64,000 nucleotides of DNA from an uncultured virus (IMG/VR IMGVR_UViG_3300005201_000018) (lineage: Duplodnaviria > Heunggongvirae > Uroviricota > Caudoviricetes): the IMG/VR virus record IMGVR_UViG_3300005201_000018. The stretch is one strand, 5' to 3'. Position numbers and translations under genes: made by a program. Positions 4,283 to 46,055 of this stretch are shown one piece after another. The stretch's first letter is position 1, and the number at the start of each line of letters is the position of its first letter. Under the pieces are notes generated by a model, which was not told where the DNA came from, did no database searches, and saw only the letters and a list, made by a program, of their open reading frames with translations.

Positions 4283-6196
4283 TGTTCTCCTCCTTTACTT
4301 CATCGCACCGGCAGCTAACGATACGTTTTTCCTCGTCGTCGCTGTCGAAAAACTCACAATCTTGACACGCTGTCGAACTGACGTTGGTTAGCGAATCCAA
4401 GTACACATGTTTATACGGACAACGCGTTAAGCACCTTCCGAAGGTGCCTACTTTGTAATGTATTTTCCTCATAAGTCCTTCATCTCCATTAACGTCGCAA
4501 CGTCATTGAGCATTTGTGCAAGCTCACGTAAATTCTCTGGTTTTGTTGTACGCATCCCAGGGACAGTAACTTGTGCACAATTTTCTTCCTGAATGAGTTC
4601 AACATTCCCCATCACCGTGCTGTAGCTATGCTTTGTTATCGTTTCCCTTTTAACCGCCATTCCTCTCCTCCTTACTCGTCATCTAGCTCTTTAACCGCAG
4701 CTACTTTAACACTCAAATCAAGGTTGTCAAAAAGCGCGTTACCACCTACAACCGACTCCACATACGCTAGTACGTCATCTACGGATTCAATCGTAATACC
4801 ATTTTCATGACATATACCCCACTCAATTATAAGACCAACCTCACACCTCATGGCTCACCTCCTTATGTGCGATAAACATTTCTGCATCTGACCTGTTAAT
4901 AAACAAGGCAACAATCTCGTAACCAAGTTCCTCGTCGCCGCCTAACACGTTATACCAGGTATCAAAATCCTCTGCGGACAATGCTGTCCCTTCCTTAATT
5001 ATATGTTTCATAAATCCTCCTTTAATTTACACAAAAAGATGGCCTCATCCAGCGTCAAGCGTAAATCTATCTCCGGTTTCATCCCTATTCCTCATTTGGC
5101 GGTAACAGCCGCCTGCCACATGAGGGGCAATGTTTCAGTTGCTCCCAAATAACACCTTCTTCATCCACAAACCATAAATGTCCACACACGGGGCAATCTA
5201 TCTTATTGTTCATGCGGCTGTACTTCCACCGCAGCGGCTCGCCAAAATCACGCTCCCACTTTTCGTTCAGGGCGGCAGTTGTAAAATCGCAGAATTCGTT
5301 GAACAATTTTATATCATTTTTAAGCCCGAAAAAGTTATGAAAATACGCCCTTAGTAACGGTTTAGGAGAATTGTTATAAGTACCGTATATTAAGTATTGC
5401 CAGTCAGAACCGGTGCCACGGACAAATGGCGACTTTAACAGTTCTTTAAGCGTTGTTGGTTTCATACAGTCTCCTTTGATAGGTAATTCAAAGCCGCCAT
5501 ATATTGTTCTTCATTACACTTTACCTGAACCAGTAAACCTTGTACCGTTAATATATCAGCATAAGAATTTAACTTTGTGCCTCTATCACGGAATCCAATA
5601 TGGGGAACAAACTGCATCCTAACTATCACACTCATTCCGGCCTCCAGCTTGCAAGAATTGTTTGTATACAAGTAGGACAATAATGCTTATCTAAATTCTC
5701 ATTTACTGTCCAGCCGTGCTCTTTTGCTTCTTTATACAAAAAGTTTGCACCCAGTTTTTCGGCATCTTCTTTTTTGCACCTACCCCCTTCTATGATACAG
5801 CCGCAACAGTTGCACTTCATTACTATCGCCTCGTAGACATCGGTACGTTCTTCAATTAAAATCATTGTTTGGCCTCCAGTCATCAGGCGGCGGCACGGGC
5901 GGATCGGCGATGACAACGGCAGGGCTTCTTTCTACGATGACAGAGCTTTTGTTATATTCGCCTAATACCCAGCCTGCATTACCCATAAAAGAAACAAAAA
6001 TCCACACAGCGCCCTTTTCAGGATACGCCTTCCCCGTGCGCTTTTCGTACTGCTCCGGCGTTTCGTAGTCGGGAACAGCTTCAAAAACATCAAGAACTCT
6101 ACAAAAAGGACATAAATGCTCATCTTCAGACAACAAATTTATTTTGTCATTACCTGCCCTGTACTCGCTCCCGCAGTTTTTACAGTAGTATTTCAT
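4269..6196 (-). other. Run of small hypothetical genes, several with CxxC zinc ribbons (4269-4472, 4469-4660, 5085-5465, 5462-5680, 5632-5865, 5852-6196)
   Basis: Closely packed minus-strand ORFs, several with start/stop overlaps and GGAG RBSs. Confidence 0.65.
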
Positions 6197-7157
6197 ACCT
6201 TCACCCCTGTTATCTCTTCAAACACTCCTTTGTCCAAATGCGGCATTTTCCGTATGGCATTACGTTCAGCAAAAGAAAGATTACTCCAGAATATCTGCCA
6301 TGATTTTTTGTATGACATATGCCGGTAATCACCGAACTTCCCAGTACTGGTACGCACCCTGTACCTTACAAGGTTAAAACGTTCACAAATCATATACCCC
6401 AGCGAGTTGGTCAACTCCCTATACTCGCTCTCTGTAAGAGACTTATTAAATGCCTCATAGGATATTCTCTTAGACATGAATACACCTGCGGAGTTATTAC
6501 AGGCATTAAAGTTGCCGCTGTTCCGGTCGCCGCTGTTCCGGTTGCCGCTGTTCAGGTCGCCGCTGTTCCGGTTGCCGCTGTTCAGGTCGCCGCTGTTCCG
6601 GTCGCCGCNNNNNNNNNNNNNNNNNNNNNNNNNNNNNNNNNNNNNNNNNNNNNNNNNNNNNNNNNNNNNNNNNNNNNNNNNNNNNNNNNNNNNNNNNNNN
6701 NNNNNNNNNNNNNNNNNNNNNNNNNNNNNNNNNNNNNNNNNNNNNNNNNNNNNNTGTTCCGGTCGCCGCTGTTCCGGTTGCCGCTGTTCAGGTCGCCGCT
6801 GTTCCGGTCGCCGCTGTTCAGGTCGCCGCTGTTCCGGTCGCCGCTGTTCAAAATACCCGTATTATTTTTTCCAACATTAACCAAGGATAAAACTTCCTCA
6901 CGGCTCAACTCGCGTACAATTTTGATATGATCTGTAACGCTCTTATCGCCCTCAGTAATAACCTCTCCAAAAGCTTCAACTTCACACACCCGACAGTCGC
7001 GTAAATTATAATACCCTTCTATGTCGCTCAAGTTTTTGCAGAAGTGAAAACCTCTGTTGCATAAAGAGATTGGTAGCTCATCTCGATACTCATTCCCAAC
7101 CTCATACTGGAACCCCCTACACGTTAAATCTTTGTCAAAGCCTTTATACCCTTTCAT
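6193..7157 (-). CDS. Phage pentapeptide (NSGDR/NSGDL/NSGNR) repeat protein spanning an assembly gap
   Basis: MKGYKGFDKDLTCRGFQYEVG N-domain, then the repeats, then NFNACNNSAGVF reading in frame into ORF 6193-6477; frame across the N run is assumed. Confidence 0.8.
6511..6850. repeat. 15-bp tandem repeat array (ccgctgttc[c/a]ggt[c/t]g) with internal N gap
   Basis: Seen on both sides of the gap at 6609-6754; true copy number unknown. Confidence 0.95.
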
Positions 7158-8280: not shown

Positions 8281-9930
8281 TAAAAAGCAGAAGAAAAGTG
8301 CGCGCTTCATTACCCTGTAGCATAGGCACACCCCACCAGGTCGTGTTTTCTTCTGCTTTTAATTACGCATAGAATTCGACCACGTAACAGTCTCCGTCAA
8401 AAATATCCTTGTACATAATTTCAAGCGCACGTACTATCTCGCCACTATCTGCCATATCTCTTACGTCGGACGCGACGCCTAAATTACGGAGCGCATGACA
8501 GATTGCAGAAGCAACCTTGTTGTACCCGTACCCACCTGCTTTACCGACGCTGTGTGTACAAAAATCCCCACGGAGCCAAATAATTGCATAGTACACAGAA
8601 GCTCCCGAACTTCTCCCTGTGTACACACGTACGTCTATCACGGCGCTACCTTCTGACTTTCGCAGCACCTTATACCCACGGACGATCTCCTTACTTCTTA
8701 TATTACCAATATCCGGGTATACCCCTGTACTTAAATTGTACTGGTAACACTGACCGTCTTCCCTTTGTACGTTAAACACGTCATTTTTAACCATTTTGCG
8801 CCTCCCTGTGCGATTCAAACTTTCCTTCGCAGATAAGCTGCCACACCCATTTAGCGCAATCAAGCCTGCTGCTATTGGTGCTCATCTTTGTTACTGCCAC
8901 CCACGGCACATCATAGCCGTCTACGGTAATCGTCTCACTTGTAATCTGCATTTCCGGTCCGTCTTTCACCTGTACACCGACAAGCACATCATGCTTCATA
9001 CAGACATGAGAAAAGCGCCCAAGTAGTTTTTCTTTGCCGCGATTAAGTGAACCTGTTGCTTCCCTAATCTCCCCACTGCCTGACGGCATCAGCTCCCAGC
9101 TTGCCATATCATAACCCCCTTACGCTATTGCTTCTTCCGCTTCTTCCGGCACAAACTCTAAACAATTTTCAAACGCGCCGTTGCACACCAAATCATCCTC
9201 AATGTGCCACCTGAAGTCCTCTGACCACAACTCTCTATCCGTCTTCCCGTCAAGACCGGCCTCGTCATCCCACATGAGAAAATCCAAAGCCTGCCATATA
9301 GACCGCTCCCAGTCCTTTGAGTATTCATCTAGCCACTTTGTGTTAACATTCCAATCGTCAAGATTATTCGCCATCCAGGACCAAAATCCGTCATAGCTGC
9401 TATACTGCTTATGCAAAAAAGCGTCAAAGTCGCTCCGCTCTCTGCACATGGTGAACAGCCGCTCAATCTCTTTCAAGCTTATAGACAATTCAAATACTGC
9501 CGCGTCCCCTGCGAAATTGTACTCCCTCGGCCTGTCTATACCGGTAAACTTCGCCTTGGCCTTTATGCCGCGCTCTTTTATCCTCTCATTGAAAGTGTCT
9601 AACCATGCTTCACTTATTATTTTGCACGCCTTCCAGGAGTTACATTCATAATGTCCCTCTTGCCATTCAGGGTTCCTTACCCGCAACTCCGTTATATCGA
9701 CGAAAGGTACCGTATTATCCGCTTCATTGAACAACGGCATTTGGCCCTCTTCATGGATATACTTACCGTATCTGTTGTCATCATCGTTGTGCCACTCATT
9801 GGCGTCTTCTTCCAGGCGCTCCATAAAGCCGTCAAACTGCCAATACATATCCGGCTGTATTACCGAAAATAGATTACTTGACATCTTGAGTTTCATATTA
9901 CCCTCCTGTTGTTTTTTCTCCCTCATCCTT

Positions 9931-9961
9931 TACGCAAAAAGCGCTTGATTACGTGAAAAAA
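9931..9961 (-). promoter_or_regulatory. Early motif copy 2
   Basis: Same bipartite motif, 19-bp period. Confidence 0.8.
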
Positions 9962-11496
9962 TAATTTTTATTCTATTGCTTCGTATGCGTCCATATCTGT
10001 TATGTGCGTATCATCATCCCCGGCTATATGCCTTTCAAGATGTCTCACTACAGAGTCGATGGCATAGTCCTCATCTTCTGCTTCCACATTATAGACCTCT
10101 ATGGTTACTTTTACGTTGTATTTCACAATGCCACCTCCCAATCAACCGGAATATATCCGTCAGCACACCGCATTTTTATTCCCCAGCACGCTTCGTACTC
10201 TTCTATGACTGTTCTCCTTTGCCCTGGAGTCAAATCGGAAAACTTTATCCTTGTACCTGCATAGAAACTGCTTTTTTCGCCTTCCCCATGATAGTAGTTC
10301 CCATTTTGCGACATACCGACATAGTACACACGCCCGATATACGGATTTTCCTTTACCGTTCTTGGTAATTGCCAGATGGAGTATTTCGTAAAGACAACTG
10401 TCCAGGCATCTTGTACCCCTTCTCGCAGTGCCTTCTTGCTCACAAAACAAGCTATGTATCGCGGCGCAAAATCTTTAATATGCGTTATGAGCTTACCATG
10501 CCTTCCGGGTTTGGTTATGGTGCCTACTGTCATACCGGTTCCTTATGCCCCTTACGCCTGGACTCCCTTGCCTTATGCAAGGCGTCCATTTCCTCTGCGG
10601 AATAGTGCGTAGGCTTTGCCTTACCGAAACACCCCTTGTGAAACGCTCTTTTACCGTGGTACTTCTTTGTAGCTACGGTTCCGGGAAACGATTCCTTATA
10701 CATACATATCCTCCTTAATTAAACTAAGGCCGCCATGATCGTCTTCATACCACACGTTCGGCCAAAATCGCGCTGTGTCCATAGACAGTTTTATAACCGT
10801 TATAGCGTCGTCGTATGACGGATAACTGCCTAACCCCTGCCCTGGAAGATACCGACCCCGGTATAACTGCCCAAAGGCCCTGTGTCGTACATGATATAGT
10901 CGCCGTCTTGCGGCTCTAATGTGCCAAGTTCTGCCATACATTCCTCACTACGCGCCTACTTCCACAAGCGCCTTCCGTGTCTTTACCTCGGTATATTCCT
11001 CATCAACAACCTTATAATCCCTTGCCATACGCACCGTCTCAAGAAGTATGTCCTCTGCCAGGCGATCAAAATCGCGGATAAGTTTCACTCTGTCTCGTAA
11101 CTGATCCATATCCCAATCAGCAAAGTCCTCTCCCTGATCCACCCCACGGCCACAATACACACCGTCCTTTCCTTTTCCTTGGTATAGCACTAAATATCCA
11201 CTTGACCTGCCATTAAACCCTGCCTGCCAGGTATAGCTATGTTCTTCCGCAAAGAGGGCTACAAGATCATTTATCTGCCACCAGTATTCTTCACACTCTA
11301 TGAGTTCAAACACTTTACTCTCTACTTCGCCAAATCCTGCCTCATAGATCTTCATGTTGTGTGCGTAAGAAGTGGACAAATTATGCGAACCCATTGTGTA
11401 ATACCTGAAATGCCCTGCAAGGTATTCTATCATTGCCTCCCTTGACTGCGTGTCAACTTCCTGTATAAATGTTTTCATAAAACCTCCTGCATTTAC

Positions 11497-11527: not shown

Positions 11528-12855
11528 TCTTCTCCCTGTAATTTAGCGTTAACATACTCCCTGAAAATACGCTTTGCGGCGCGGAATCCATAGAAAACAT
11601 ACCGCTGCTTAAAATACCGTCCATCCTCTGCCCGGTATGACAGTGTAAAACCGTCAACAGGGTGCCGCATGAACATAATATCCTTATACCGTATGCGTTC
11701 TTTACGCATGATTGTGTACCTCCTGCCCGTTATCCTTGCGGAAATAGGCGCAGTGCCCATGCAACCCTCCGTTCACGGGTCTCTTACGGTACAGACTCCA
11801 TGCCTCTACCATCTTTATGCCATGATCTGTCATGCTTTTTATATGGCCGGCATCACGCACCCCAAAGTTTGCCATGGTATCCCCAAAAAAACGCATCGTC
11901 TTCCTGTTGAAAAAATACCCTTCTGGATTATTGAACTCATAGAGCTGCTTTAATTCACTCGGTGTCATACTACCTCCTTGAAGTACCGCTTCAAAAAAGC
12001 GCCTGTCTTCCGGGCAGAAAGAAAACGATCCTGCTTATTGCTCCAGGTGAAATGGTACTTCCGTTCTTCCCCGGAATACACCACAACACAATTCATGTGA
12101 TGACACGAGTCATAATACCTGCCTTCATACTTTGCCTTCCGCATACAATTCCCCCTTACACTATAGTTATCTGCTTTACGCGCAGACCTGCCTTTACGCA
12201 AAGTTCACACGCACTTTCCCAGCTCGCAAAATAGAGCACCTTGCCTGCCTTCCTGCCCGGAAACTTCCTGGGCTGCTTTGCCTGCCATATTCCCCTGCCG
12301 GGTTTTTCCTTAACACTTACCCGATACATTACCGCCTGCCTTTATGCTATTTGGATCCAGCCTTCTTCCTTGTCCGGCTTGCCTGCACCAATTTCAGCAC
12401 ATAATGCATAGATCCTCCGTGATGTACTCGGCGCTCCAAACCATCCTTGCCAGTTTATAAACACACCTTCTGTGCCAGACCGTGCAATAGCGTTGCCATG
12501 GTAAAACCAATACATTAACCTGTCGCCTGCCATACCGCTACATACCACGCGATCCCTCGGCCCTGGACAACCTTCTTTGCCATTTATCAAAAGCCGTATA
12601 GCCTGTTCATGCACCTTCCGCATAATTTGCCCCCTGTACTATCTTGTCCACTATGCTGCCGGCTTGCTGCTCTGTGATACCTGCACGCCTCCAGCCGGAC
12701 TGCTTAACCATATCCGCAAGCCATTTTGTCGCATGGCGCTTACCCACAAGTTTGTATGCAACCATTACCCGGTTAGTAATACGCTTATCGCTTACTATCC
12801 ATGATTCTGTCTCCTTTAGGTTCAGGTCTCTTGTCATATAACCCCCGTCATTTAC

Positions 12856-12886
12856 TACGCGAAAAATTGACATTTACGTGAAAAAA
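12856..12886 (-). promoter_or_regulatory. Early motif copy 4
   Basis: TACGCGAAAAA...TACGTGAAAAAA. Confidence 0.8.
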
Positions 12887-13258
12887 TAATTGAAAAAAAA
12901 CACACAAGCTTTTTAATTGAAACGATAGGCGCGGGGTATGACCCCCGCCATGTATACGCTTATGCCTTACTGCCTATCAGGGTAAAGGTGAGTCCGGTTT
13001 GGTAACGCGCATCAGGATTTGCGGGGTTTGTTACCTTGCCCGTTGCAAAAAATCCGACACTACCCGTGGAAAAATCTTTAGCCGTTGCATACATACGGCC
13101 CCATTCACGCCCTTCATTATCGGCTATAATAACCGATAATGACGCCGGGGCTTTGTTATCCCTATACCCTTGTTTCTTGTTTGCCATATATACTCCCTTA
13201 CATGATATATAAACCGGGCTTGTTGCCGGGCTTATCCCTATTTCCGATGATCACTTAC

Positions 13259-13359
13259 TACGCAAAAAATCGCTGATTACGTGAAAAAATAATTTTGATT
13301 TGCTCTTTTGCTTTTTAGTGTGCACCTACTACGCAAAAATCGCCGATTACGTGAAAAAA
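13259..13359 (-). promoter_or_regulatory. Early motif copies 5 and 6 (13259-13289, 13330-13359)
   Basis: Two tandem near-identical copies. Confidence 0.8.
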
Positions 13360-13600
13360 TAATTTTGTTGTCTATACTATGTAATACACTTATATGACTA
13401 CCTAGTGTATAGTGTGTACTACTGTACTCGTACTATGTACTATATAGTATCAAAATTAAATTGCAGGTAAAATATGTTAGTGTGGAAACATGAATAAATT
13501 TGAAAAGTAGATATATGTTTTTATTCCGTTTTTAAGGCATATTTTATGGATTGATCATAGGCGCAAAAAACACAAGCAGATATTTTTAGATCACAAAAAC

Positions 13601-13630
13601 ATAGTACCACAAATAAAAATGGTGTGTCAA
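13601..13630 (-). promoter_or_regulatory. Sigma70-type promoter toward the early cluster
   Basis: TTGACA-18 nt-TACTAT with TG extension. Confidence 0.55.
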
Positions 13631-13928
13631 GTGATTTTATAAAACTATTTTATAAAACTATTTTAACCGTTAAATCATCCCTTACTGTATAATACACTTA
13701 ATGATACTATATAGTATGGGTAACAAAGAAGAAAGAATTTTAAGAAAATTCCCGATTTTCTCCATTTTTCCCATACCCCCAAATAACTTTTTTTCAATTT
13801 GTACTTTTGAAATTTATTCAGGTTTACACATATACAAATTTTAACTGCGATTAAAAATAAGCCCCCCCGGCCGGCGTTTTCCTCTGTTTTTTGGGTATTT
13901 TGCAAAATTTTTCGGCTATTTTACAAAA

Positions 13929-13959
13929 TTTTTTCACGTAGTCGGGGATTTTTTGCGTA
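13929..13959 (+). promoter_or_regulatory. Early motif copy 7, opposite orientation
   Basis: TTTTTTCACGTAgtcggggaTTTTTTGCGTA pointing at gene 14236. Confidence 0.8.
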
Positions 13960-14158
13960 TAGTGTGAGGGTGATACATAATACACACTATACAGATTGAG
14001 CCACGGCGGGGGTAAATAGGGTTTTTGGGCCGATAAGCGCCGCAAGCCCCGGATCCCCCGGATCCCCTATTTTTAGGAAATTTAGGAAATTTTATAAAAC
14101 TTTTTGAGTTTTTTCCAAAAGTATACTAAAAAAAAAGTATAGATTTTGCAGAGAAGTA

Positions 14159-14187
14159 TTGATCTTTTTTTATCGTTGTGGTATATT
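14159..14187 (+). promoter_or_regulatory. Sigma70-type promoter of the 278-aa gene
   Basis: TTGATC-17 nt-TATATT with TG extension. Confidence 0.65.
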
Positions 14188-14235
14188 ATAAGTAACAGAC
14201 GGTCAATCTGTAATACATTTTAGGAGGTTACTATT

Positions 14236-15072
14236 ATGAGTAACAAGTTATCAGAGCGGGATATGGCGCGCGTTAACGCTTGCGCTATACTGTTTTTGGC
14301 TAGTAAGCGGGCTCCAAGGATCCAGCAGATTGCGGATGCCAAAGGCATAAGCCTAGGTGATGCCGCAACCATGTATACTTTGGGCGCGCTCAAGCGGGCC
14401 AAGCGTCAAGGCGCCAGGACCTATGGTGAGGCATTGGAGCGCTTAGAGGCCGAGCAAGTAGGGGATCGGGGGAACAAAATCACCCGGACGGCGAACGCCG
14501 AGCGATTAAGCCGGACGGTTAATCGGATTAACCGGGTTAACGCCGGGGACAAGATCACGATCGACGGTGTCCAATACGTGCATGATTATGATCAAATCGT
14601 AACCGTTGACGGCGTAAGGGAGGCGATCCCACACTTTGCGATTATGGACAAGGTAGAGGGGGAGCCCCGGACGTGCAAGGTTATGGGCACGTTATATGCC
14701 CAATGGGAGGAGCGCAAAGCCAAGAGCGATCCGGCAATCCAGGCCGACACGTGGATCAATTTGGAGTTGTTGCAAGCCGAGCGCCAAGGCGTGGATGCGA
14801 TCAATAACGTCATTGACAATAATCTGCGGCTTTACTTTGCCGATTATGCGGCCCGGTTATCACGTACCGCGCAACGGCGCTTGTACGAGCTTGCAACATC
14901 GGACACCGATCCGGCCTACTTAATGGGTAAGGCTAGAGATGCGGATAATAAGGCTATGCGCCGCGCCGCATGGGGTGCTTATACTTTGTATAGCGGCTTC
15001 CCGCATCGTGAGAGCATTTCCGGCGTTGAGTTTATCAATCTTGTAAGGCAGCACGTACAGGCCCCGGCGTAG
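14236..15072 (+). CDS. Hypothetical 278-aa protein in a monocistronic unit; candidate regulator
   Basis: AGGAGG RBS, own promoter and terminator, GC-rich compared with its flanks; function unknown. Confidence 0.8.
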   Translation: MSNKLSERDMARVNACAILFLASKRAPRIQQIADAKGISLGDAATMYTLGALKRAKRQGARTYGEALERLEAEQVGDRGNKITRTANAERLSRTVNRINRVNAGDKITIDGVQYVHDYDQIVTVDGVREAIPHFAIMDKVEGEPRTCKVMGTLYAQWEERKAKSDPAIQADTWINLELLQAERQGVDAINNVIDNNLRLYFADYAARLSRTAQRRLYELATSDTDPAYLMGKARDADNKAMRRAAWGAYTLYSGFPHRESISGVEFINLVRQHVQAPA

Positions 15073-15080
15073 GTATACCA

Positions 15081-15123
15081 ATAGGCTAGTGGTGCAAGCG
15101 GGTACCACTAGCCTATATTTTTT
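15081..15123 (+). terminator. Intrinsic terminator
   Basis: 13-bp stem ataggctagtggt/accactagcctat followed by a T run. Confidence 0.85.
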
Positions 15124-15301
15124 CCTTGTGGAATTTTACCCAGGAAAAATAATGGCTTGCCTAGAACTGTTCATCGCGCGGGATTTGGGCAAAAAGGTAA
15201 AATACAAAGAAAAAATTGTTTTTGTTTTTTTCTAAGCTTACCGTATGGTTGGCTAAACTTTTGTTTTTAAGTGTGCCGTAAGGCACAAGAGGAGAAGGAT
15301 T

Positions 15302-15544
15302 ATGCGTACTGTAGTTGTTGATGGTGAAGAGCGCAGGATTGCAAGTTTAAGCCCAAAGCTTGAAATATCTGTTGAGTTTACAGATAAGGCAGCCGCACTC
15401 GGCTATCGGCTGTTTTTAGCTGCACATTATGACGAGAGGCCATTATTTTTATTGAGACATCTTTGTGATGTACTTGAATTCACCAACAGTGATGCTTACA
15501 TACTCCGTTTTGACAAGGAGGATTCTTATGAACGAGCTAGTTAA
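15302..15544 (+). CDS. Hypothetical protein
   Basis: 80-aa ORF with purine-rich RBS, overlapping the next gene. Confidence 0.65.
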   Translation: MRTVVVDGEERRIASLSPKLEISVEFTDKAAALGYRLFLAAHYDERPLFLLRHLCDVLEFTNSDAYILRFDKEDSYERAS

Positions 15545-16442
15545 AATCATTGAGTACGACTCTCGACGGTTGGTTGACGCACGTGACCTACATAAGAGAC
15601 TGGGTGTTAAGTCTCGCTTCAACGACTGGATCAACAACAGAATTAAAAATTATGCTTATGTCGAAGGAGAAGATTTTTTTCTTGAAGCAAAAAAGCAGAG
15701 CGATAGTCGTATTTGTGATTATCTCATTACAATGGACGTTGCAAAGGAGCTTGCTATTGTTGAGAACAACGAGAAGGGCAGAGAAATTAGACGGTATTTA
15801 ATATCGTCAGCAGAGGCATGGAACACACCTGAAAAGGTTATCGCCCGCGCAAAACAAGCAGGTGCGATAATACTAACAGAAAAGGAAGTCGAGGAGTTTG
15901 AGTTCCTTGCTGAAGGCATGGCCGTTACTCCGTTCCCGGAATGTAGTCTTAAAGGGCTGCCGGCAAATGTGTGGCGTATTTGGACATCCAATGAAGAAGG
16001 CGGCAGAGTCTACATGCTACAATCCAAAGAGAGCAAGCTTACACGTTGGATACATATCTACGATGCTAATGGAAAGCATATTCGGATATTTATGACAAGG
16101 TGGAGTGACCGGTATAATCAGTGGATGGATTATGATTCAATCCAGCGATTGCAGAAAGAATATCTTTCCACGCTTGGAACGTGGGGTAAAAGAGAGCGTG
16201 TGCAGTTCACTGATTACTTTAGGTGGAGAGCGTCCATGATTAAGGCTGGGAAAATAAACCTCCAAGTTGAGGATAAGAGGGACAAGGCTGTTGAGGAAAT
16301 CAGCGCTCCTAAAGCTGGAAGCGCTGCTCCAGAAAACGTGCTTCCTTTCGAGCCGCCTAAGCGCAAGCGGAATTTCTACAGAGATGAGGTTACGGGAGAA
16401 CGGGTCTTTTACGACGACGAGGAAGCAAGCGCGGCGACTTGA
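15528..16442 (+). CDS. AntA/AntB-type antirepressor domain protein
   Basis: VDARDLHKRLGVKSRFNDWI, DYLITMDVAKELAIVENNEKGREIRRY, AWNTPEKVIARA; AAGGAGG before ATG 15528. Confidence 0.85.
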   Translation: MNELVKIIEYDSRRLVDARDLHKRLGVKSRFNDWINNRIKNYAYVEGEDFFLEAKKQSDSRICDYLITMDVAKELAIVENNEKGREIRRYLISSAEAWNTPEKVIARAKQAGAIILTEKEVEEFEFLAEGMAVTPFPECSLKGLPANVWRIWTSNEEGGRVYMLQSKESKLTRWIHIYDANGKHIRIFMTRWSDRYNQWMDYDSIQRLQKEYLSTLGTWGKRERVQFTDYFRWRASMIKAGKINLQVEDKRDKAVEEISAPKAGSAAPENVLPFEPPKRKRNFYRDEVTGERVFYDDEEASAAT

Positions 16443-16473
16443 TTTTTCTTCTGCTTTGTAGTATATTTTAATT

Positions 16474-16551
16474 TGCCGCTGGGAATCGGCCCACCTTTTT
16501 AGGTAGCCTCCTGTAAGATTGACCGTCTACAGGTTCCCAGCGGCTTTTTTT
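16474..16551 (+). ncRNA. Putative antisense small RNA 1, three-way junction
   Basis: Promoter TTGATT(16439)-17-TATATT; 11-bp closing stem 16475-85/16534-44 plus T7; two internal hairpins; complementary to the 14197-14230 leader. Confidence 0.7.
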
Positions 16552-16616
16552 GTAGGCAAGCCTTGAAAGTGTTGACATATATCTGCCTATAGGGTAAATT
16601 GAGGCTGGAGGTCAAA

Positions 16617-17102
16617 ATGGCTGAACAAATACCCCCTACCACTGATTATCGACAGCAGGTAGCAGCTTACGAGCGTAAACGTAAGATATATGGCGATACT
16701 ATGCGTTTGTGGGAAATGTTTGATAAAACAAGTTCCGAAATGGATGCCAGGTTTGATAAAGTACTTTTTACTATTGCGGCAGGGTCGTTTGGTTTGTCAT
16801 TCGTGTTTATCGACAAGTTCGTCCCTGTGATCGGTAAAGCCGTATGGCCGTTACTGCTTATGATCTCGTGGGCACTTTTTGCGCTTTGCCTTATTGTTAT
16901 GGTTATTGGTCACCTAATGAGCGCAGAATCATGGCGTAAGCAGCGTGATCAAGTTGCTAAGGACATGTTTCTTCAGTTTGACGGTAAACCGGTGGAAAAT
17001 AAGCCGACAAAAGATAGTGTGTCGCCGTGTAATTATATCGCACTTATTTCTTATATAGGCGGTATCGTATGTCTATTATGGTTTGTACTGATAAATCTGT
17101 AA
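16617..17102 (+). CDS. Three-TM membrane protein, moron-like
   Basis: Three hydrophobic helices; own promoter TTGACA(16572)-17-TAAATT; GGAGG RBS. Confidence 0.8.
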   Translation: MAEQIPPTTDYRQQVAAYERKRKIYGDTMRLWEMFDKTSSEMDARFDKVLFTIAAGSFGLSFVFIDKFVPVIGKAVWPLLLMISWALFALCLIVMVIGHLMSAESWRKQRDQVAKDMFLQFDGKPVENKPTKDSVSPCNYIALISYIGGIVCLLWFVLINL

Positions 17103-17200
17103 TTGTGCCCGGCACAGACAGCAAGCCTTCTTCCACGCCAATACCTGCACCACCGCTGCCTCCCCCTCCTTCGCCTCCCCTACCGTCTGAAGATAGTTGA
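17069..17200 (+). CDS. Putative 43-aa proline-rich peptide
   Basis: MSIMVCTDKSVIVPGTDSKPSSTPIPAPPLPPPPSPPLPSEDS; AGGCGG upstream; below the ORF-track cutoff. Confidence 0.5.
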   Translation: MSIMVCTDKSVIVPGTDSKPSSTPIPAPPLPPPPSPPLPSEDS

Positions 17201-40673: not shown

Positions 40674-41536
40674 AGCAGCCCTTCAGGTATTTTAGGGGTG
40701 AGTTTAACGGAGCATACCTGTATCCTTTAGTGACGTGTCCAAACTATGTGGTAAGCGATATTTTGGATGAGTTTGTGTACCAAGTTCTTCATCAATGGAA
40801 ACTTGCGGATGAGGTAGCATCTGGAGAAATACCTATAAGAGATAAAGATATTTTTAGCGTAGCTCAAATTGGTGGGCTTTGTCAGTTATATGCGTACGGT
40901 ATGTCTTCGTATGGTTCAGTATATTTTACGCAAAGTCACAAAGTTTCAGAACAAGAAAGAAGCGACCGCGGTCTCTTTGATATGGATACAAACCAGTTTG
41001 ATTTTGTTAGAACACAATATGATAGTTATTCTGATGACATAGTAAACGAAGCATCCAGTACCAGACGAATCAGTTTTGTACCTGAAGGTAGAGTTCCGTT
41101 AGGCTATTTGCCGGAAGGCAGTGACTTGTATACTGATGAAGGCGAAATTATGTGGGACAACCTGTTGTCTGAACCGCCGGAGGACGATACTCCTTATACT
41201 CCTTTTTATGGAGAGGAGTTTCTAACGCACGAGAATTTTTTCAAGCAACGAATGTTTTTAACGGTTGAAATATTCAAACTTCTCTTTGAATGTTTACAAC
41301 GCATACGGTACAATGGCCCATCAATAGCGTCTTTCCTTGAGGTAACTCGTATATTGTGTGATGTATATATTTATGACATTGAAATCATTTCTTCCGGCAG
41401 ATTTTCTATTGTACATTATAGCACAGATAGCTCTTTTGACCTAGAAAATAAGGATATGCGTACATTTGCATGGCAAAAGCTGTGCGCACAAAAATTCAAA
41501 CTATTTACGCTTGCGCATAGAGAAGAGGAGGTGTAG
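40670..41536 (+). CDS. Probable baseplate wedge (gpI-like) protein
   Basis: Position between J-like and fibre genes; ATGA overlap. Confidence 0.5.
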   Translation: MKQPFRYFRGEFNGAYLYPLVTCPNYVVSDILDEFVYQVLHQWKLADEVASGEIPIRDKDIFSVAQIGGLCQLYAYGMSSYGSVYFTQSHKVSEQERSDRGLFDMDTNQFDFVRTQYDSYSDDIVNEASSTRRISFVPEGRVPLGYLPEGSDLYTDEGEIMWDNLLSEPPEDDTPYTPFYGEEFLTHENFFKQRMFLTVEIFKLLFECLQRIRYNGPSIASFLEVTRILCDVYIYDIEIISSGRFSIVHYSTDSSFDLENKDMRTFAWQKLCAQKFKLFTLAHREEEV

Positions 41537-41537
41537 T

Positions 41538-43961
41538 ATGTCACTACAAGGTGATCTTCAGCAAATAAAAAGTGTTGTTACCGGTCTTGAAAATAACCCT
41601 GTTGCTCGTCTTGCGTATACCCAAAGCGCTTTTGACGCCGACAATGTGGACGGAGTTGCTAACTTTAACAACAGCGCGGAACAAAACATACCGCTTGCTA
41701 CGAAGACCGATTTTAACCCGACAGTTCTTACAAAAGGTATCCGTGGTGACTGTGCTTCCTATCCACGGAACGCATGGAACCACTATCTTGGCAGAATGTC
41801 CTACAATCTAAACAAATTGGTACAAAAGATTGGTGCTCTAATAACCGTTCTTTTATCTATGTTGTCAAAAGGCGGCTTTAGATATGATAACCAGGCTACC
41901 TATAGTACTGGGAGCATCTGTTATGACATTGATAGTAACAATATAATTACCTGGTATAAGCGTAACAGCACATATTCAAATGGACCTGTTCCGCTTACCG
42001 ATACATATTGGGACGAACTTGCTGATAAGGTTTCCCTGGAAGCCGTTGTTGCAAATGTTGAAAACAGCCTTACGAGTATATCAACAACTATGGCATTAAG
42101 CGCTGCAAAAGGAAAAGAATTACAGGATACTAAGGCTCCTATTAACACTATACTTATGGATGCAGCGGAGTCTAACACGTTACCAAATACGTCGAATACA
42201 GCGCTTACAGCGCTGCTGCAAACAATGCGGAACAATATAAAGCATTTGTTTAACAACAAGGCGAACAAAACAGAGGGTGTTTCTAGCGGTACTGTAGGAA
42301 CTGCGATAAGTACGGCTGTTAAGACTGCTACAGTTGATAATTTTATGTATGCCGAAAGTAATAACAAGCTGTTGATACTCACGTTTACTAATGGTAATTC
42401 TGCTGCTGCAACAAAACTAAATATAAATTCGCAGGGCGACAAGGATATTTGGTACAAAGGTGCACTAACATCAACAACAAACCCGTGGGTATCTCCAGCA
42501 GGCAGCAGTGTTTTATTACAGTATGATACCGCGAATAACCGGTTTAATATCATTGACGATGGGTTGGATAGTAATCGTATAAGCAGTGCAATTACAACTA
42601 CATCAATCAGCACTGCGACAAAAGTGGTGTCTGTTCCTAATTTTATCCTTTCCAGGAGCAGTGGAAAGTTGTTGGCGCTTACATTTACTTACGGTAACTC
42701 TGCTGCTGTACCCGTTTTGAACGTGAATACACAGGGAGCAAAGCCTATCTGGATTAACGGAGCTGTAACGTCATCGTCAAATCTGCTAACACTTGTTGCC
42801 AACGCTACCGTATTTTTTCAGTATGACCTAACAAACGACCGCTTTAATGTTGTCAGTATAGTTGACGGCTCGGCCTATGGGCTTGTTCGTTTCCCTGTTA
42901 TAGCTACAACCAGTAATGTCGCAAAATCCGCGTTGCCCTATACCTACTTTGGTGCCAGTACCGAAGTACATCTTAATAACTACAGGGAAGCCGGAGAGTT
43001 TACCTTTTATAACATATCTTCAAGCTCAACAGGTTTCCCAGCAGGCTTCGGAACAGGGACAGCAAATTCAGCTAGTTTGAAAGTAATATTGTTTTATGGG
43101 GATACTGCCGGACTTCAGATTCTTCGTAAACGTGGAACGCGCCAAAAATGGGAGCGAATCTTTACCGCTGCCAGTACGTTTACAGCATGGGAGCTCGTTA
43201 GCGGGTCTGAAGTAGGCGATGTATATATTCAATACCCTAACACAAGGGAACCGGGTCAAAAGTGGCCTAGTGAAAACTGGGTAGATTGGACGGAACGTGT
43301 TGAATTTTATGAGGTTTCTACAAGTGTACCTGCATATACAACGTATGCTGCAAACCAAAGCTATAATGTCGGCGTCTATGTATTGTATACACACAAGGAT
43401 AAGAGCCAGGAAATATTTAAGTGTAAAAATGCCATTGCAAGCGCTCCTGCCGTACTTGACCCTGTTAACTGGACACCATTGCGTGATGACACAAATGCAA
43501 ACTATGTTACAACGTGTGTAGAGAGAATCAGCATCCAGGCAACATGGGGCGCGACTGCGTCTACTGACTTAGCTATAGGAGTCACAATATCGGGTGCTCC
43601 TGTAAGCACATATAACGGTAAACGCATAACGGGTAGATATACGCCGGGCGGGAAATTCGCTGGGTTTGCCGGTGGAAATAGACCACCGTATATAAATGGC
43701 GGGGTAGCTCCGGATGTCCAGCGGGCCATTACAGGCGCGGCGCAGTGGCTTTATATGGGATACCCGGCCTGGGGTACAAATGTCAGAGAGGGGGCCTTTT
43801 CTTTTGGCGCGGCGCTTGGATCCTTGGCAGGAGAAACGGTTGGTACAGCGGTCAGTGACTATCAAGGCTCTTTGAGGTTTAATTCTGCCGATTCCGTCCT
43901 CACCAGCCCGGAAAACAGTCCGCGTACCATGTCTGTACGCTACTGGAGGCGTGTGGCTTAG
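41538..43961 (+). CDS. Tail fibre with switchable C-terminus (cassette A currently fused)
   Basis: ALSAAKGKEL fibre motif, duplicated LTFT.GNSAA..LN.N.QG.K.IW domain, knob-like segment; ends SPRTMSVRYWRRVA. Confidence 0.9.
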   Translation: MSLQGDLQQIKSVVTGLENNPVARLAYTQSAFDADNVDGVANFNNSAEQNIPLATKTDFNPTVLTKGIRGDCASYPRNAWNHYLGRMSYNLNKLVQKIGALITVLLSMLSKGGFRYDNQATYSTGSICYDIDSNNIITWYKRNSTYSNGPVPLTDTYWDELADKVSLEAVVANVENSLTSISTTMALSAAKGKELQDTKAPINTILMDAAESNTLPNTSNTALTALLQTMRNNIKHLFNNKANKTEGVSSGTVGTAISTAVKTATVDNFMYAESNNKLLILTFTNGNSAAATKLNINSQGDKDIWYKGALTSTTNPWVSPAGSSVLLQYDTANNRFNIIDDGLDSNRISSAITTTSISTATKVVSVPNFILSRSSGKLLALTFTYGNSAAVPVLNVNTQGAKPIWINGAVTSSSNLLTLVANATVFFQYDLTNDRFNVVSIVDGSAYGLVRFPVIATTSNVAKSALPYTYFGASTEVHLNNYREAGEFTFYNISSSSTGFPAGFGTGTANSASLKVILFYGDTAGLQILRKRGTRQKWERIFTAASTFTAWELVSGSEVGDVYIQYPNTREPGQKWPSENWVDWTERVEFYEVSTSVPAYTTYAANQSYNVGVYVLYTHKDKSQEIFKCKNAIASAPAVLDPVNWTPLRDDTNANYVTTCVERISIQATWGATASTDLAIGVTISGAPVSTYNGKRITGRYTPGGKFAGFAGGNRPPYINGGVAPDVQRAITGAAQWLYMGYPAWGTNVREGAFSFGAALGSLAGETVGTAVSDYQGSLRFNSADSVLTSPENSPRTMSVRYWRRVA
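43684..43717 (+). repeat. Inversion site 1, inside the fibre gene
   Basis: caccgtatataaatggcggggtagctccggatgt. Confidence 0.9.
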
Positions 43962-45424: not shown

Positions 45425-46021
45425 TTATGTCGTTAACCGCTCACGCCTGAACAGTCGGACTGTCTGCCTATGTACACCAAATCGTTCGCCAATCTCGACG
45501 TTATTTTTCCCTTCCAGAACCATTTTCCGTATTTCGTTCTCATGCCCTGAAAGTCTTACGTTCGTAACCCTCCCCGGACGGCGACCGAGCACTTTTCCCT
45601 CTGCTTTACACCGAGCCAGGGCTTCCTTGGTACGTTGCGCGATTAAATTTCTCTCAATTTCAGCCGAAAGTCCAAACGCAAAGGCGAGCACCTTACTCTG
45701 TATATCGTCCCCTAAGCGATAATTGTCCTTTATGGTCCATATTTTAGCCCCTATAGACAGGCAATACTGCAAAATCGACATTATCATAAGCAGGCTGCGT
45801 CCAAGCCTCGACAGTTCAGAACAGATTATCAAGTCGTCCTGTTTAACGGCTTTAAGAAGCGCCCCGAGCATCCTTTTTTCAAGAGTTTTTGTTCCGCTAA
45901 TTGTCTCTTCAATCCACTGACCAACGCATATTTTGTTGTTCGCGCAAAACTGTTCGATTTCAAACCGCTGATTTCTAACTGTCTGCTTATCTGTGCTGAC
46001 CCTTACATATCCATATACCAT
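45425..46021 (-). CDS. Serine recombinase/DNA invertase, Mpi-like
   Basis: YGYVRVSTDKQ catalytic Ser, SELSRLGR, LGDDIQSKVLAFAFGLSAEIER, C-terminal HTH. Confidence 0.92.
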   Translation of the reverse strand: MVYGYVRVSTDKQTVRNQRFEIEQFCANNKICVGQWIEETISGTKTLEKRMLGALLKAVKQDDLIICSELSRLGRSLLMIMSILQYCLSIGAKIWTIKDNYRLGDDIQSKVLAFAFGLSAEIERNLIAQRTKEALARCKAEGKVLGRRPGRVTNVRLSGHENEIRKMVLEGKNNVEIGERFGVHRQTVRLFRRERLTT

Positions 46022-46055
46022 ATACTCCTCCAAAAATTTTGATAAATTTTAGGGT

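Follow-up and report, generated by a model that had tools for sequence, protein, structure and literature searches.

The 64,000-nucleotide (nt) stretch of DNA from the uncultured caudoviricete IMGVR_UViG_3300005201_000018 (called the window below) carries on its plus strand a gene for an orphan protein of 278 amino acids (aa; 14236–15072, +, an open reading frame (ORF) with metagenomic homologues) and, further along the same strand, a 78-nt element (16474–16551, +) that looks like a small RNA gene with its own promoter. The 278-aa gene heads the first plus-strand unit, which is ordered promoter, 42-nt leader, 278-aa gene, hairpin, possible 80-aa ORF, ant (antirepressor gene), small RNA, promoter and packaging genes. 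An initial annotation had described the element as a separate antisense RNA whose trans targets are the leader and the ribosome-binding site of the 278-aa gene, and this pairing is found, in differing sequences, in all seven loci compared here. The promoter of the 278-aa gene (14159–14187, +) reads TTGATC-17-TATATT with a TG, and the leader begins with a hairpin, ACAGA/CGGTCAA/TCTGT (14195–14211, +), that has five base pairs (bp) and a 7-nt loop in the minimum free energy (MFE) structure. This hairpin contains the first pairing site, AGACGGTCAATCT (14197–14209, +), and the second, UAGGAGGUUACU (14221–14232, +), is the Shine–Dalgarno region with its AGGAGG.

The small RNA gene has the parts that the initial annotation gave it. 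A sigma-70-type promoter, TTGATT-17-TATATT (16439–16467, +), precedes it, and the predicted fold consists of an 11-bp closing stem (P1, 16475–16485/16534–16544), two inner hairpins (P2 and P3) and a U7 tail, with an MFE of −37.5 kcal/mol (z −5.55; none of 200 shuffled sequences was as stable). Both pairing segments had been placed in hairpins with 7-nt loops; this holds for the leader, and the loop of the RNA's apical hairpin has 5 or 7 nt depending on the register. The apical hairpin holds the specificity segment AGATTGACCGTCT (16516–16528, +), which is complementary to 14197–14209, and just 5′ of it stands the anti-Shine–Dalgarno segment GGUAGCCUCCUG (16502–16513, +). A GC-rich island in the control region (13985–14080, ending in GGATCCCCCGGATCC and a T-run) was considered as a second small RNA and rejected, its fold being no better than that of shuffled sequences (z −0.22).

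The 278-aa protein has 34 homologues, all of them metagenomic and none with a Pfam domain. The DNA of the relatives was fetched by protein, which made the retrieval blind to the RNA. One related locus comes from viral contigs (L001, 60% identity; one of 18 pattern stretches confirmed) and the others from metagenome contigs (L017 to L022, 37–58% identity; six of 138 stretches confirmed). Counts below refer to seven loci, namely the window, L001, L017, L018, L020, L021 and L022; L019 was left out as it starts inside the gene and ends 1.2 kb past it, and so has neither leader nor RNA. The RNA family is small, with no more members in species-representative genomes or viral contigs. A blastn search of 13200–17200 against GenBank phages gave no match, and the exact closing-stem pattern found no stretch in viral contigs. 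The 15-nt anti-Shine–Dalgarno word occurred in 15 stretches of viral contigs, just one of which is the RNA (L013, on the same contig as L001). A degenerate pattern for the RNA found four stretches in viral contigs with one member (L038, 83 bits), which is identical in sequence to L022 and was not counted, and 15 stretches in species-representative genome contigs, none of them a member by covariance model; the best of the latter (L031, 25.2 bits) was rejected as a plain terminator hairpin. Protein scans with an alignment of the target family returned nothing from the genome contigs and L001 alone from the viral contigs, and another scan with a protein query returned none.

In all seven loci the RNA element is 73–83 nt long, begins 5–7 nt after a TTGAYW-17-TAnnnT promoter and ends in a T-run. 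The promoter is kept even in L022, although there the RNA directly follows the 278-aa gene and no coding sequence overlaps the promoter. A covariance model built from the seven loci (R1) finds a single copy in seven of eight sources at 66–92 bits (92.1 bits in the window) and none in L019. Over the 21 intramolecular pairs, 95.9% of the alignment cells can pair and nine pairs have changed on both sides, a level reached by none of 500 shuffles, whereas slid partners pair in 23–51% of cells; in the closing stem 8 of the 11 pairs are compensatory. No change is seen at the base of P3 (CCUGUA/UACAGG), in the CCUCC segment or in the UUUU loop of P2, and CCUCCUGU is kept in seven of seven. With its own promoter in every locus and two conserved inner hairpins, the element does not fit the description of a plain terminator. 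An Rfam search, which the initial annotation had listed as a check, gave no family for the RNA in the window or in its six relatives; at the gathering score no family matches anywhere in the window, and the C4 model (presumably accession RF01695) has no match at E up to 10 in 13500–17000 or at E up to 1 in L001, L017, L018, L020, L021 and L022. Any other Rfam matches stood at chance level.

The leaders share a plan rather than a sequence. In seven of seven, a sigma-70-type promoter, as read from the sequence, ends 5–9 nt 5′ of a short hairpin, so that the hairpin falls at the mRNA's predicted 5′ end. Among the loci the stem sequences vary (ACAGA/TCTGT, TAGAC/GUCUA, TAGGT/ACCTA, TAGA/TCTA and TAGT/ACTA), as do the loops, and L017 and L020 have an additional hairpin inserted within the leader hairpin.

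The 13-nt complementarity between 14197–14209 and 16516–16528 is exact, as originally noted, with both segments on the same strand and 2,306 nt between the arms. By our own arithmetic about 30 inverted matches of 13 nt are expected somewhere in 64 kb, so the match alone proves nothing; what lifts it above chance is that the two sites co-vary in the relatives. For the 24-nt RNA hairpin the leader is the sole 13-nt exact complement in the window (the next longest has 10 nt), and by duplex energy it ranks second (−23.0) among 42,579 windows taken across the 64 kb. In six of six related loci the leader is the top duplex site of the entire locus on either strand. The longest exact complement measures 13 nt in the window, L017 and L020, 14 nt in L018, 15 nt in L022, 12 nt in L001 (16 nt including one G–U pair) and 12 nt in L021, where a one-base bulge and 3 more nt follow. 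In L022 there is in addition a 10-nt inverted match, ACTACTAGTG/CACTAGTAGT (4926–4937 and 6088–6099), between the leader 3′ of its hairpin and the sequence past the RNA terminator; it was seen in that locus only.

Covariation in related phages had been named as a check, and it gives the decisive evidence. When the register is fixed by the UAG anchor common to the loci, 88 of the 91 cells pair and nine of the 13 positions have changed on both sides, with complementarity kept in all seven loci; when the register is slid by 1–3 positions, 20–32 pairs are left of 70–91 cells. Exchanging partners among loci gives a mean of 56.3 pairs over the 1,854 derangements (maximum 69), and the cognate assignment is the sole best of 5040. 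Cognate duplexes range from −22.1 to −27.1 kcal/mol versus −4.7 to −20.9 kcal/mol for non-cognate ones, and the cognate energies sum to −170.6 versus −94.9 for the best derangement. L017, L018, L020 and L022, whose contig names have one prefix, all differ in the apical core. Such a private core per phage, even among loci of one prefix, is expected of an immunity determinant that avoids cross-talk.

The second site involves an RNA segment with an invariant core. The adjacent segment was said to pair with the ribosome-binding site in the correct order, and it does so over 12 bp including G–U pairs in the window (16502–16513 with 14221–14232, −19.4 kcal/mol); across all seven loci GCCUCC and its flanks form 9–12 bp with the Shine–Dalgarno region (−15.3 to −20.4 kcal/mol). 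The flanks follow the target, UUAC/GUAG becoming UUGC/GCAG in L001, and in L022, where the Shine–Dalgarno sequence is GGGGG, the pairing is shifted to ACAGGGGG/CCUCCUGU. A U–G pair persists at this site in five of the seven loci; it is absent from L020, where the site is fully Watson–Crick (GUAACCUCC), and L022 has another G–U pair. The order is consistently antiparallel: in the RNA the anti-Shine–Dalgarno segment precedes the specificity segment, and in the mRNA the Shine–Dalgarno sequence follows the hairpin. The two mRNA sites are 11–70 nt apart, and about 1.1 to 2.3 kb separate target and RNA. Shuffled controls, also proposed at the outset, bear the duplex out in most loci: against dinucleotide-shuffled leaders it scores z −5.5 in the window, −5.8 in L001, −4.6 in L018 and −5.8 in L021 (0 of 200 shuffles as good in each) and −2.8 in L022 (1 of 200). 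With the cost of opening included, the two sites together have a net energy between −14.0 and −21.0 kcal/mol in every one of the seven loci, by a rough sum in which the connecting loop is neglected.

Taken together, these comparisons of sequence make it very probable that the two RNAs pair functionally. Repression of translation by the RNA is likely, and a trans-acting translational repressor is, as a whole and leaving any role in immunity aside, the account that we favour as reasonably probable. The RNA of about 78 nt would be made constitutively from its own promoter, ended by the closing stem and U-tract, and would act as a trans regulator of the 278-aa gene by binding its mRNA, the start of which lies 2.3 kb upstream on this strand. 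Its variable apical hairpin would contact the 5′-terminal hairpin of the mRNA over 12–16 bp, and pairing would spread through both stems, releasing P3's 5′ strand and bringing the neighbouring invariant GCCUCC(UG) onto the Shine–Dalgarno region (9–12 bp) while the mRNA between the sites loops out. Masking of the ribosome-binding site would block translation of the 278-aa protein, and an mRNA held in so long a duplex might be degraded as well. The state could be flipped if the target promoter fired strongly enough for its transcripts to titrate the RNA.

Several observations weigh against this account. The leader hairpin has only five bp and is not significant by itself; the fold of the window leader is no better than that of shuffled sequences (z −0.10; 80 of 200 as good), and the hairpin is absent from the centroid structure. 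In the long leaders of L017 and L020 the duplex is weak (z −1.4, 20 of 200 shuffles as good, and z −1.7, 8 of 200). Target pairing has a competitor in the fold of the RNA itself (−37.5 kcal/mol), in which P2 and P3 partly sequester the anti-Shine–Dalgarno segment. Nested co-folding of the window pair with RNAcofold, the check first proposed, shows no net gain (ddG 0.0); this result was set aside because pairing between the two RNAs from within the closing stem would cross the stem, which a nested model does not allow, and duplex and opening energies were used in its place. A site inside an ORF, AAGACGGTCAGTGTTACCAG (8738–8765, −; 9 nt exact plus G–U pairs), slightly surpasses the leader in duplex energy (−24.0 versus −23.0) and is probably a chance match, and some non-cognate pairs are strong, such as that of the window RNA with the leader of L021 (−20.9). 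The covariation figures for the RNA come from an alignment fitted to the model's structure and lean towards the model. There are seven sequences only, all from uncultured metagenomic contigs, and L017, L018, L020 and L022, together with L019, share a contig-name prefix and are not independent. A protein regulator probably acts as well, to judge from the operator-like repeats at the target promoter described below, and the label of immunity is taken by analogy with P1/P7 C4.

The 278-aa protein itself offers few leads. PHROGs gave no match, nor did Pfam at E up to 0.01. When the Pfam threshold was relaxed to E 1, the window protein had one chance-level match (CRISPR_Cse2, E 0.2), and matches among the 34 members were scattered over 17 families, of which 16 were hit by just one member; at the same threshold NCBIfam gave the window protein no match, and the 34 members matched eight families there with one member each (best E 0.005). 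The best match among Protein Data Bank (PDB) sequences had E 0.06, the ESM Atlas held no usable match, and Foldseek at E up to 0.001 found nothing in PDB or BFVD. An AlphaFold model (mean predicted confidence, pLDDT, 74.1) has confident N- and C-terminal helical domains and a beta region. The best VIA-align Z score was 5.3. Residues 175–276 align with several LuxR/sigma-region-4 helix-turn-helix chains at Z 4–5, which is within noise, so that the likeness in the model is a lead, not a result; the N-terminal domain has weak winged-helix matches to the DnaD domain, ORC and MCM (Z ~4–5), likewise within noise.

The window is most of a phage genome, and most of its ORFs are orphans; the protein search placed the target protein on a contig of 68,753 bases. 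A tyrosine integrase is encoded at 275–1741. Minus-strand genes run from 13187 to 2003 and include SSB and an exonuclease-like protein, and a second minus-strand set at 49–64 kb encodes replication proteins (family A DNA polymerase, helicases, AEP primase and ThyX). The plus-strand arm extends from 14236 onward and comprises a terminase-like protein, portal protein, protease and tail genes. The search for tRNA and tmRNA genes in the window found none. A serine recombinase gene (Resolvase domain, E 6e-31; 45425–46033, −) lies just past the tail-fibre-like genes 41466–43961 and may act as a tail-fibre invertase or else provide a second integration function, and a run of 146 N at 6609–6754 falls inside a DUF7666/pentapeptide-repeat gene (6582–7157, −). 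The initial annotation had also found no CI-like repressor with a peptidase domain, despite the integrase. This stands only insofar as no repressor or peptidase family was recognised in the scanned ORFs of the window, the sole helix-turn-helix match being a sub-threshold HTH_17 at the N-terminus of the integrase (23.1 bits against a cut-off of 27); on the other side are the many orphans and the operator-like repeats.

About 1 kb of AT-rich (34% GC), repeat-dense sequence (13190–14235) separates the two gene arms. An operator-like inverted repeat, GTATACT-A9-AGTATAG (14122–14145), lies just 5′ of the target promoter; L001 has a counterpart, GTGTACT-A8-AGTACAC, within the promoter spacer (~975–997), and L017 a palindrome, TACTAAAATATTTAGTA (~4862–4880), at or inside the promoter of its 278-aa gene. 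The control region of the window also contains a 12-nt palindrome, TACTATATAGTA, twice (13438–13450 and 13705–13717) and an inverted repeat of 59 nt (13456–13514 with 13797–13855; 80% complementary, arms 282 nt apart). A repeat of about 40 nt, TACGC[GA]AAAAAT...TTACGTGAAAAAATAATT, occurs at 12848–12891, 13251–13294, 13321–13364 and ~9940–9980 and, inverted, at 13919–13959. It amounts to two TTTTTT[CG]ACGTAA-like half-sites on the minus strand and stands in the window shortly 5′ of minus-strand genes; similar repeats are found in L017 (near 358, 2115 and 3950), L020 and L021. This repeat looks like a phage-specific promoter or regulator-binding element.

The order of the module is fixed: target gene, optional ant, RNA, packaging genes. 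In the window the Ant-type antirepressor gene, recognised by its AntA domain in domain searches, occupies 15528–16442 (+), and a further promoter lies 3′ of the RNA gene (16572–16600). An Ant-type gene stands directly 5′ of the RNA in six of the seven loci, and it belongs to two PHROG groups: the AntA/phrog_5817 type in the window, L001, L018 and L021 and the phrog_130 type in L017 and L020, L022 having none. The RNA is followed by a 225–240-aa orphan and then the large terminase. The spacer between the 278-aa gene and ant measures 230–400 nt and begins with a strong hairpin just past the stop codon (15081–15116, +, in the window), whose stems covary in seven of seven loci. A T-run follows this hairpin in the window only, which makes read-through from the 278-aa gene into ant plausible. 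The sequence past the hairpin is conserved as well (TTTACCTGAAAA ... AAAC.GTT ... CGCGCAC), even in the ant-less L022, and this may be a second RNA or DNA control element.

To our knowledge, RNA-based phage immunity is limited to a handful of systems, all of them in phages of Proteobacteria (P1/P7 C4, P4 CI and P22 sar). The P4 CI RNA is a small stable immunity factor that arises by processing of the leader of its own operon, which it controls, pairs with complementary sequences in the early transcript of the phage and causes premature termination of transcription. The RNA described here resembles it in that an RNA rather than a protein would be the factor and pair with the phage's own transcript, and differs in covering the Shine–Dalgarno sequence and in coming from its own promoter. 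The plasmid RNAs CopA/CopT (R1) and RNA I/RNA II (ColE1) are cis-encoded and fully complementary to their targets, make first contact loop to loop and have diverging loops. Loop–loop contact, extension, occlusion of a leader or ribosome-binding site and diverging specificity loops are common to both, whereas the RNA in the window is trans-encoded with a partial match at two sites. The difference from type I toxin–antitoxin pairs lies in the target, which has 278 aa with helical domains and a beta region (such toxins are usually hydrophobic and under 60 aa, with the antisense RNA adjacent or overlapping), and in the distance of 1.1–2.3 kb to the RNA. P22 sar is transcribed opposite ant itself and is fully complementary to it, whereas the present RNA is encoded on the same strand 2.3 kb away and has 13 nt plus 12 nt of complementarity only. 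The two would have in common that a small antisense RNA acts at translation initiation, sar being a 68/69-nt RNA that limits antirepressor synthesis by pairing there, as summarized in the excerpts drawn on here (PMC12197685).

The closest precedent is the C4 RNA of phages P1 and P7, which the initial annotation had cited, aptly in view of the ant gene that lies between target and RNA in six of seven loci. In the excerpts of the literature drawn on here, C4 is a 77-nt antisense RNA acting in trans that carries complementary sequences in its loops, pairs in the region of a ribosome-binding site, regulates ant and is the basis of heteroimmunity (PMC12197685); the operon is ordered c4-icd-ant and is additionally under C1 repression in P1 (PMC8198154), and Icd of P1 has 73 aa (PMC11897509). 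Judged by those excerpts, the two systems share a structured phage RNA of about 77 nt, base pairing through looped segments, a ribosome-binding site as target, linkage to ant and pairing segments that differ between related phages. Here, too, two segments pair with two mRNA sites, one of them at the ribosome-binding site (88 of 91 cells and 9–12 bp), and at the level of sequence there is specificity among related phages, with seven different cores in seven loci and the cognate assignment best of 5040. In contrast to C4, the RNA matches no Rfam model and forms a three-way junction closed by a terminator stem; its gene follows target and ant and has a promoter of its own, whereas c4 of P1 lies upstream in the same operon. 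Site 1 is formed by a hairpin right at the 5′ terminus of the mRNA, the RNA pairs directly with the message of the 278-aa orphan and not, as far as those excerpts go, with that of a 73-aa Icd, and the pairing is directed at a gene upstream of ant, which is missing in L022. Thus, judged on its sequence features, the RNA would act in the manner of P1/P7 C4 while falling outside the C4 family. A literature search, not exhaustive, found no RNA of this kind described in uncultured or Gram-positive-type phages.

By this analogy the variable core would confer a private specificity on each phage, and the RNA would be an immunity or specificity determinant of the P1/P7 C4 type whose target is the first gene of a rightward unit that also holds the antirepressor gene; the operator-like repeats at the target promoter suggest a double control by RNA and protein similar to that of P1. 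An immunity function is possible, and we put it forward tentatively. A stronger form of the idea, in which the RNA is the primary immunity factor, its 8–10-nt hypervariable core defines immunity groups of co-occurring phages and the 278-aa protein is a lytic master activator, possibly sigma-region-4/LuxR-like, that reads TTTTTTCACGTAA-type elements before the leftward genes, would make this a second, independently evolved C4-like system; it is unlikely.

In the alternative that survives best, the pairing is accepted but serves no immunity switch. The trans-encoded RNA would control copy number or dosage, or act as an antitoxin-like brake, on the lines of CopA/CopT and RNA I/RNA II or of a type I toxin–antitoxin pair, and the 278-aa protein under its control would initiate replication or inhibit growth. 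The gene adjoins the AT-rich, repeat-dense kilobase, which could be an origin; the noise-level likeness of the N-terminal domain to the winged helices of the DnaD domain, ORC and MCM points the same way, L022 keeps gene and RNA without ant, and loop–loop recognition with a private, rapidly changing specificity is also a hallmark of plasmid incompatibility RNAs. Set against these points, the gene is a fixed core gene that in all loci heads the rightward unit beside the packaging genes, unlike an accessory cassette, and at 278 aa it is far above the size of type I toxins; recognisable replication genes (family A polymerase, primase, helicases and SSB) lie on the other strand, the tyrosine integrase leaves no obvious need for copy control of the plasmid type, and no fold match rises above noise. 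On balance this alternative is decidedly improbable.

The same order of genes allows the element to be read as the 3′ end of a read-through transcript of the 278-aa gene and ant, a terminator whose complementarity works in cis between the 5′ and 3′ ends of one mRNA. In all loci it lies downstream of the target on the same strand and closes the unit with a stem and U-tract, the hairpin past the 278-aa gene is without a T-run in six of seven, so that read-through is plausible, and C4 of phage P1 is itself excised from a transcript on which its targets also lie. Yet a consensus-like promoter stands at a fixed distance from the element in seven of seven loci, including L022, where no coding sequence explains it, obligatory self-pairing would silence the gene in every transcript, and the sites lie anywhere from about 1.1 to 2.3 kb apart, all of which makes pairing in cis very unlikely.

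Still less credit is due to the possibility that the 13-nt sequence is a DNA site, with one phage-specific protein binding an operator at the target promoter and a copy inside 16474–16551. Two operators of one regulator would also co-vary, both copies have dyad symmetry around the core, and the control region is rich in other operator-like repeats. A DNA site would make no sense of the second segment over the Shine–Dalgarno sequence with its U–G pair in five of seven loci, and the copy at 16516–16528 sits in the apical hairpin of an RNA gene with a conserved promoter, a U-tract and 8 of 11 compensatory closing pairs. The copies are inverted in all seven loci, as antisense pairing needs, the mismatches are of kinds that RNA tolerates (G–U cells in L001, and in L021 both G–U cells and a one-base bulge), and the target copy lies 3′ of the predicted −10, inside the transcribed leader. 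Chance, for which the ~30 matches expected in 64 kb and the equally good energy site in the ORF at 8738 might speak, is refuted for practical purposes by a complementarity kept in seven of seven loci with differing sequences and a cognate assignment that is the best of 5040.

The RNA that we favour as a trans-acting repressor follows the same logic as C4 with a fold that differs from those of the known systems, is found only in uncultured phages and is absent from Rfam, and its bioinformatic signature is unusually clean, in that two distant sites have changed together in every relative found. If the reading is right, these phages would have a new RNA family with a modular scaffold, in which an invariant anti-Shine–Dalgarno segment is combined with a swappable specificity loop. 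The loci would then provide a natural set of orthogonal RNA–target pairs, for which the 7 × 7 energy matrix predicts which ones cross-react (the window RNA with the leaders of L021 and L020, the RNAs of L018 and L022 with no other leader), and a handle on an orphan protein family at a control point of these phages. Should the RNA prove to be the primary immunity factor, lysogeny would be kept, or relatives excluded, mainly through an RNA, with a new RNA fold and a new family of regulators.

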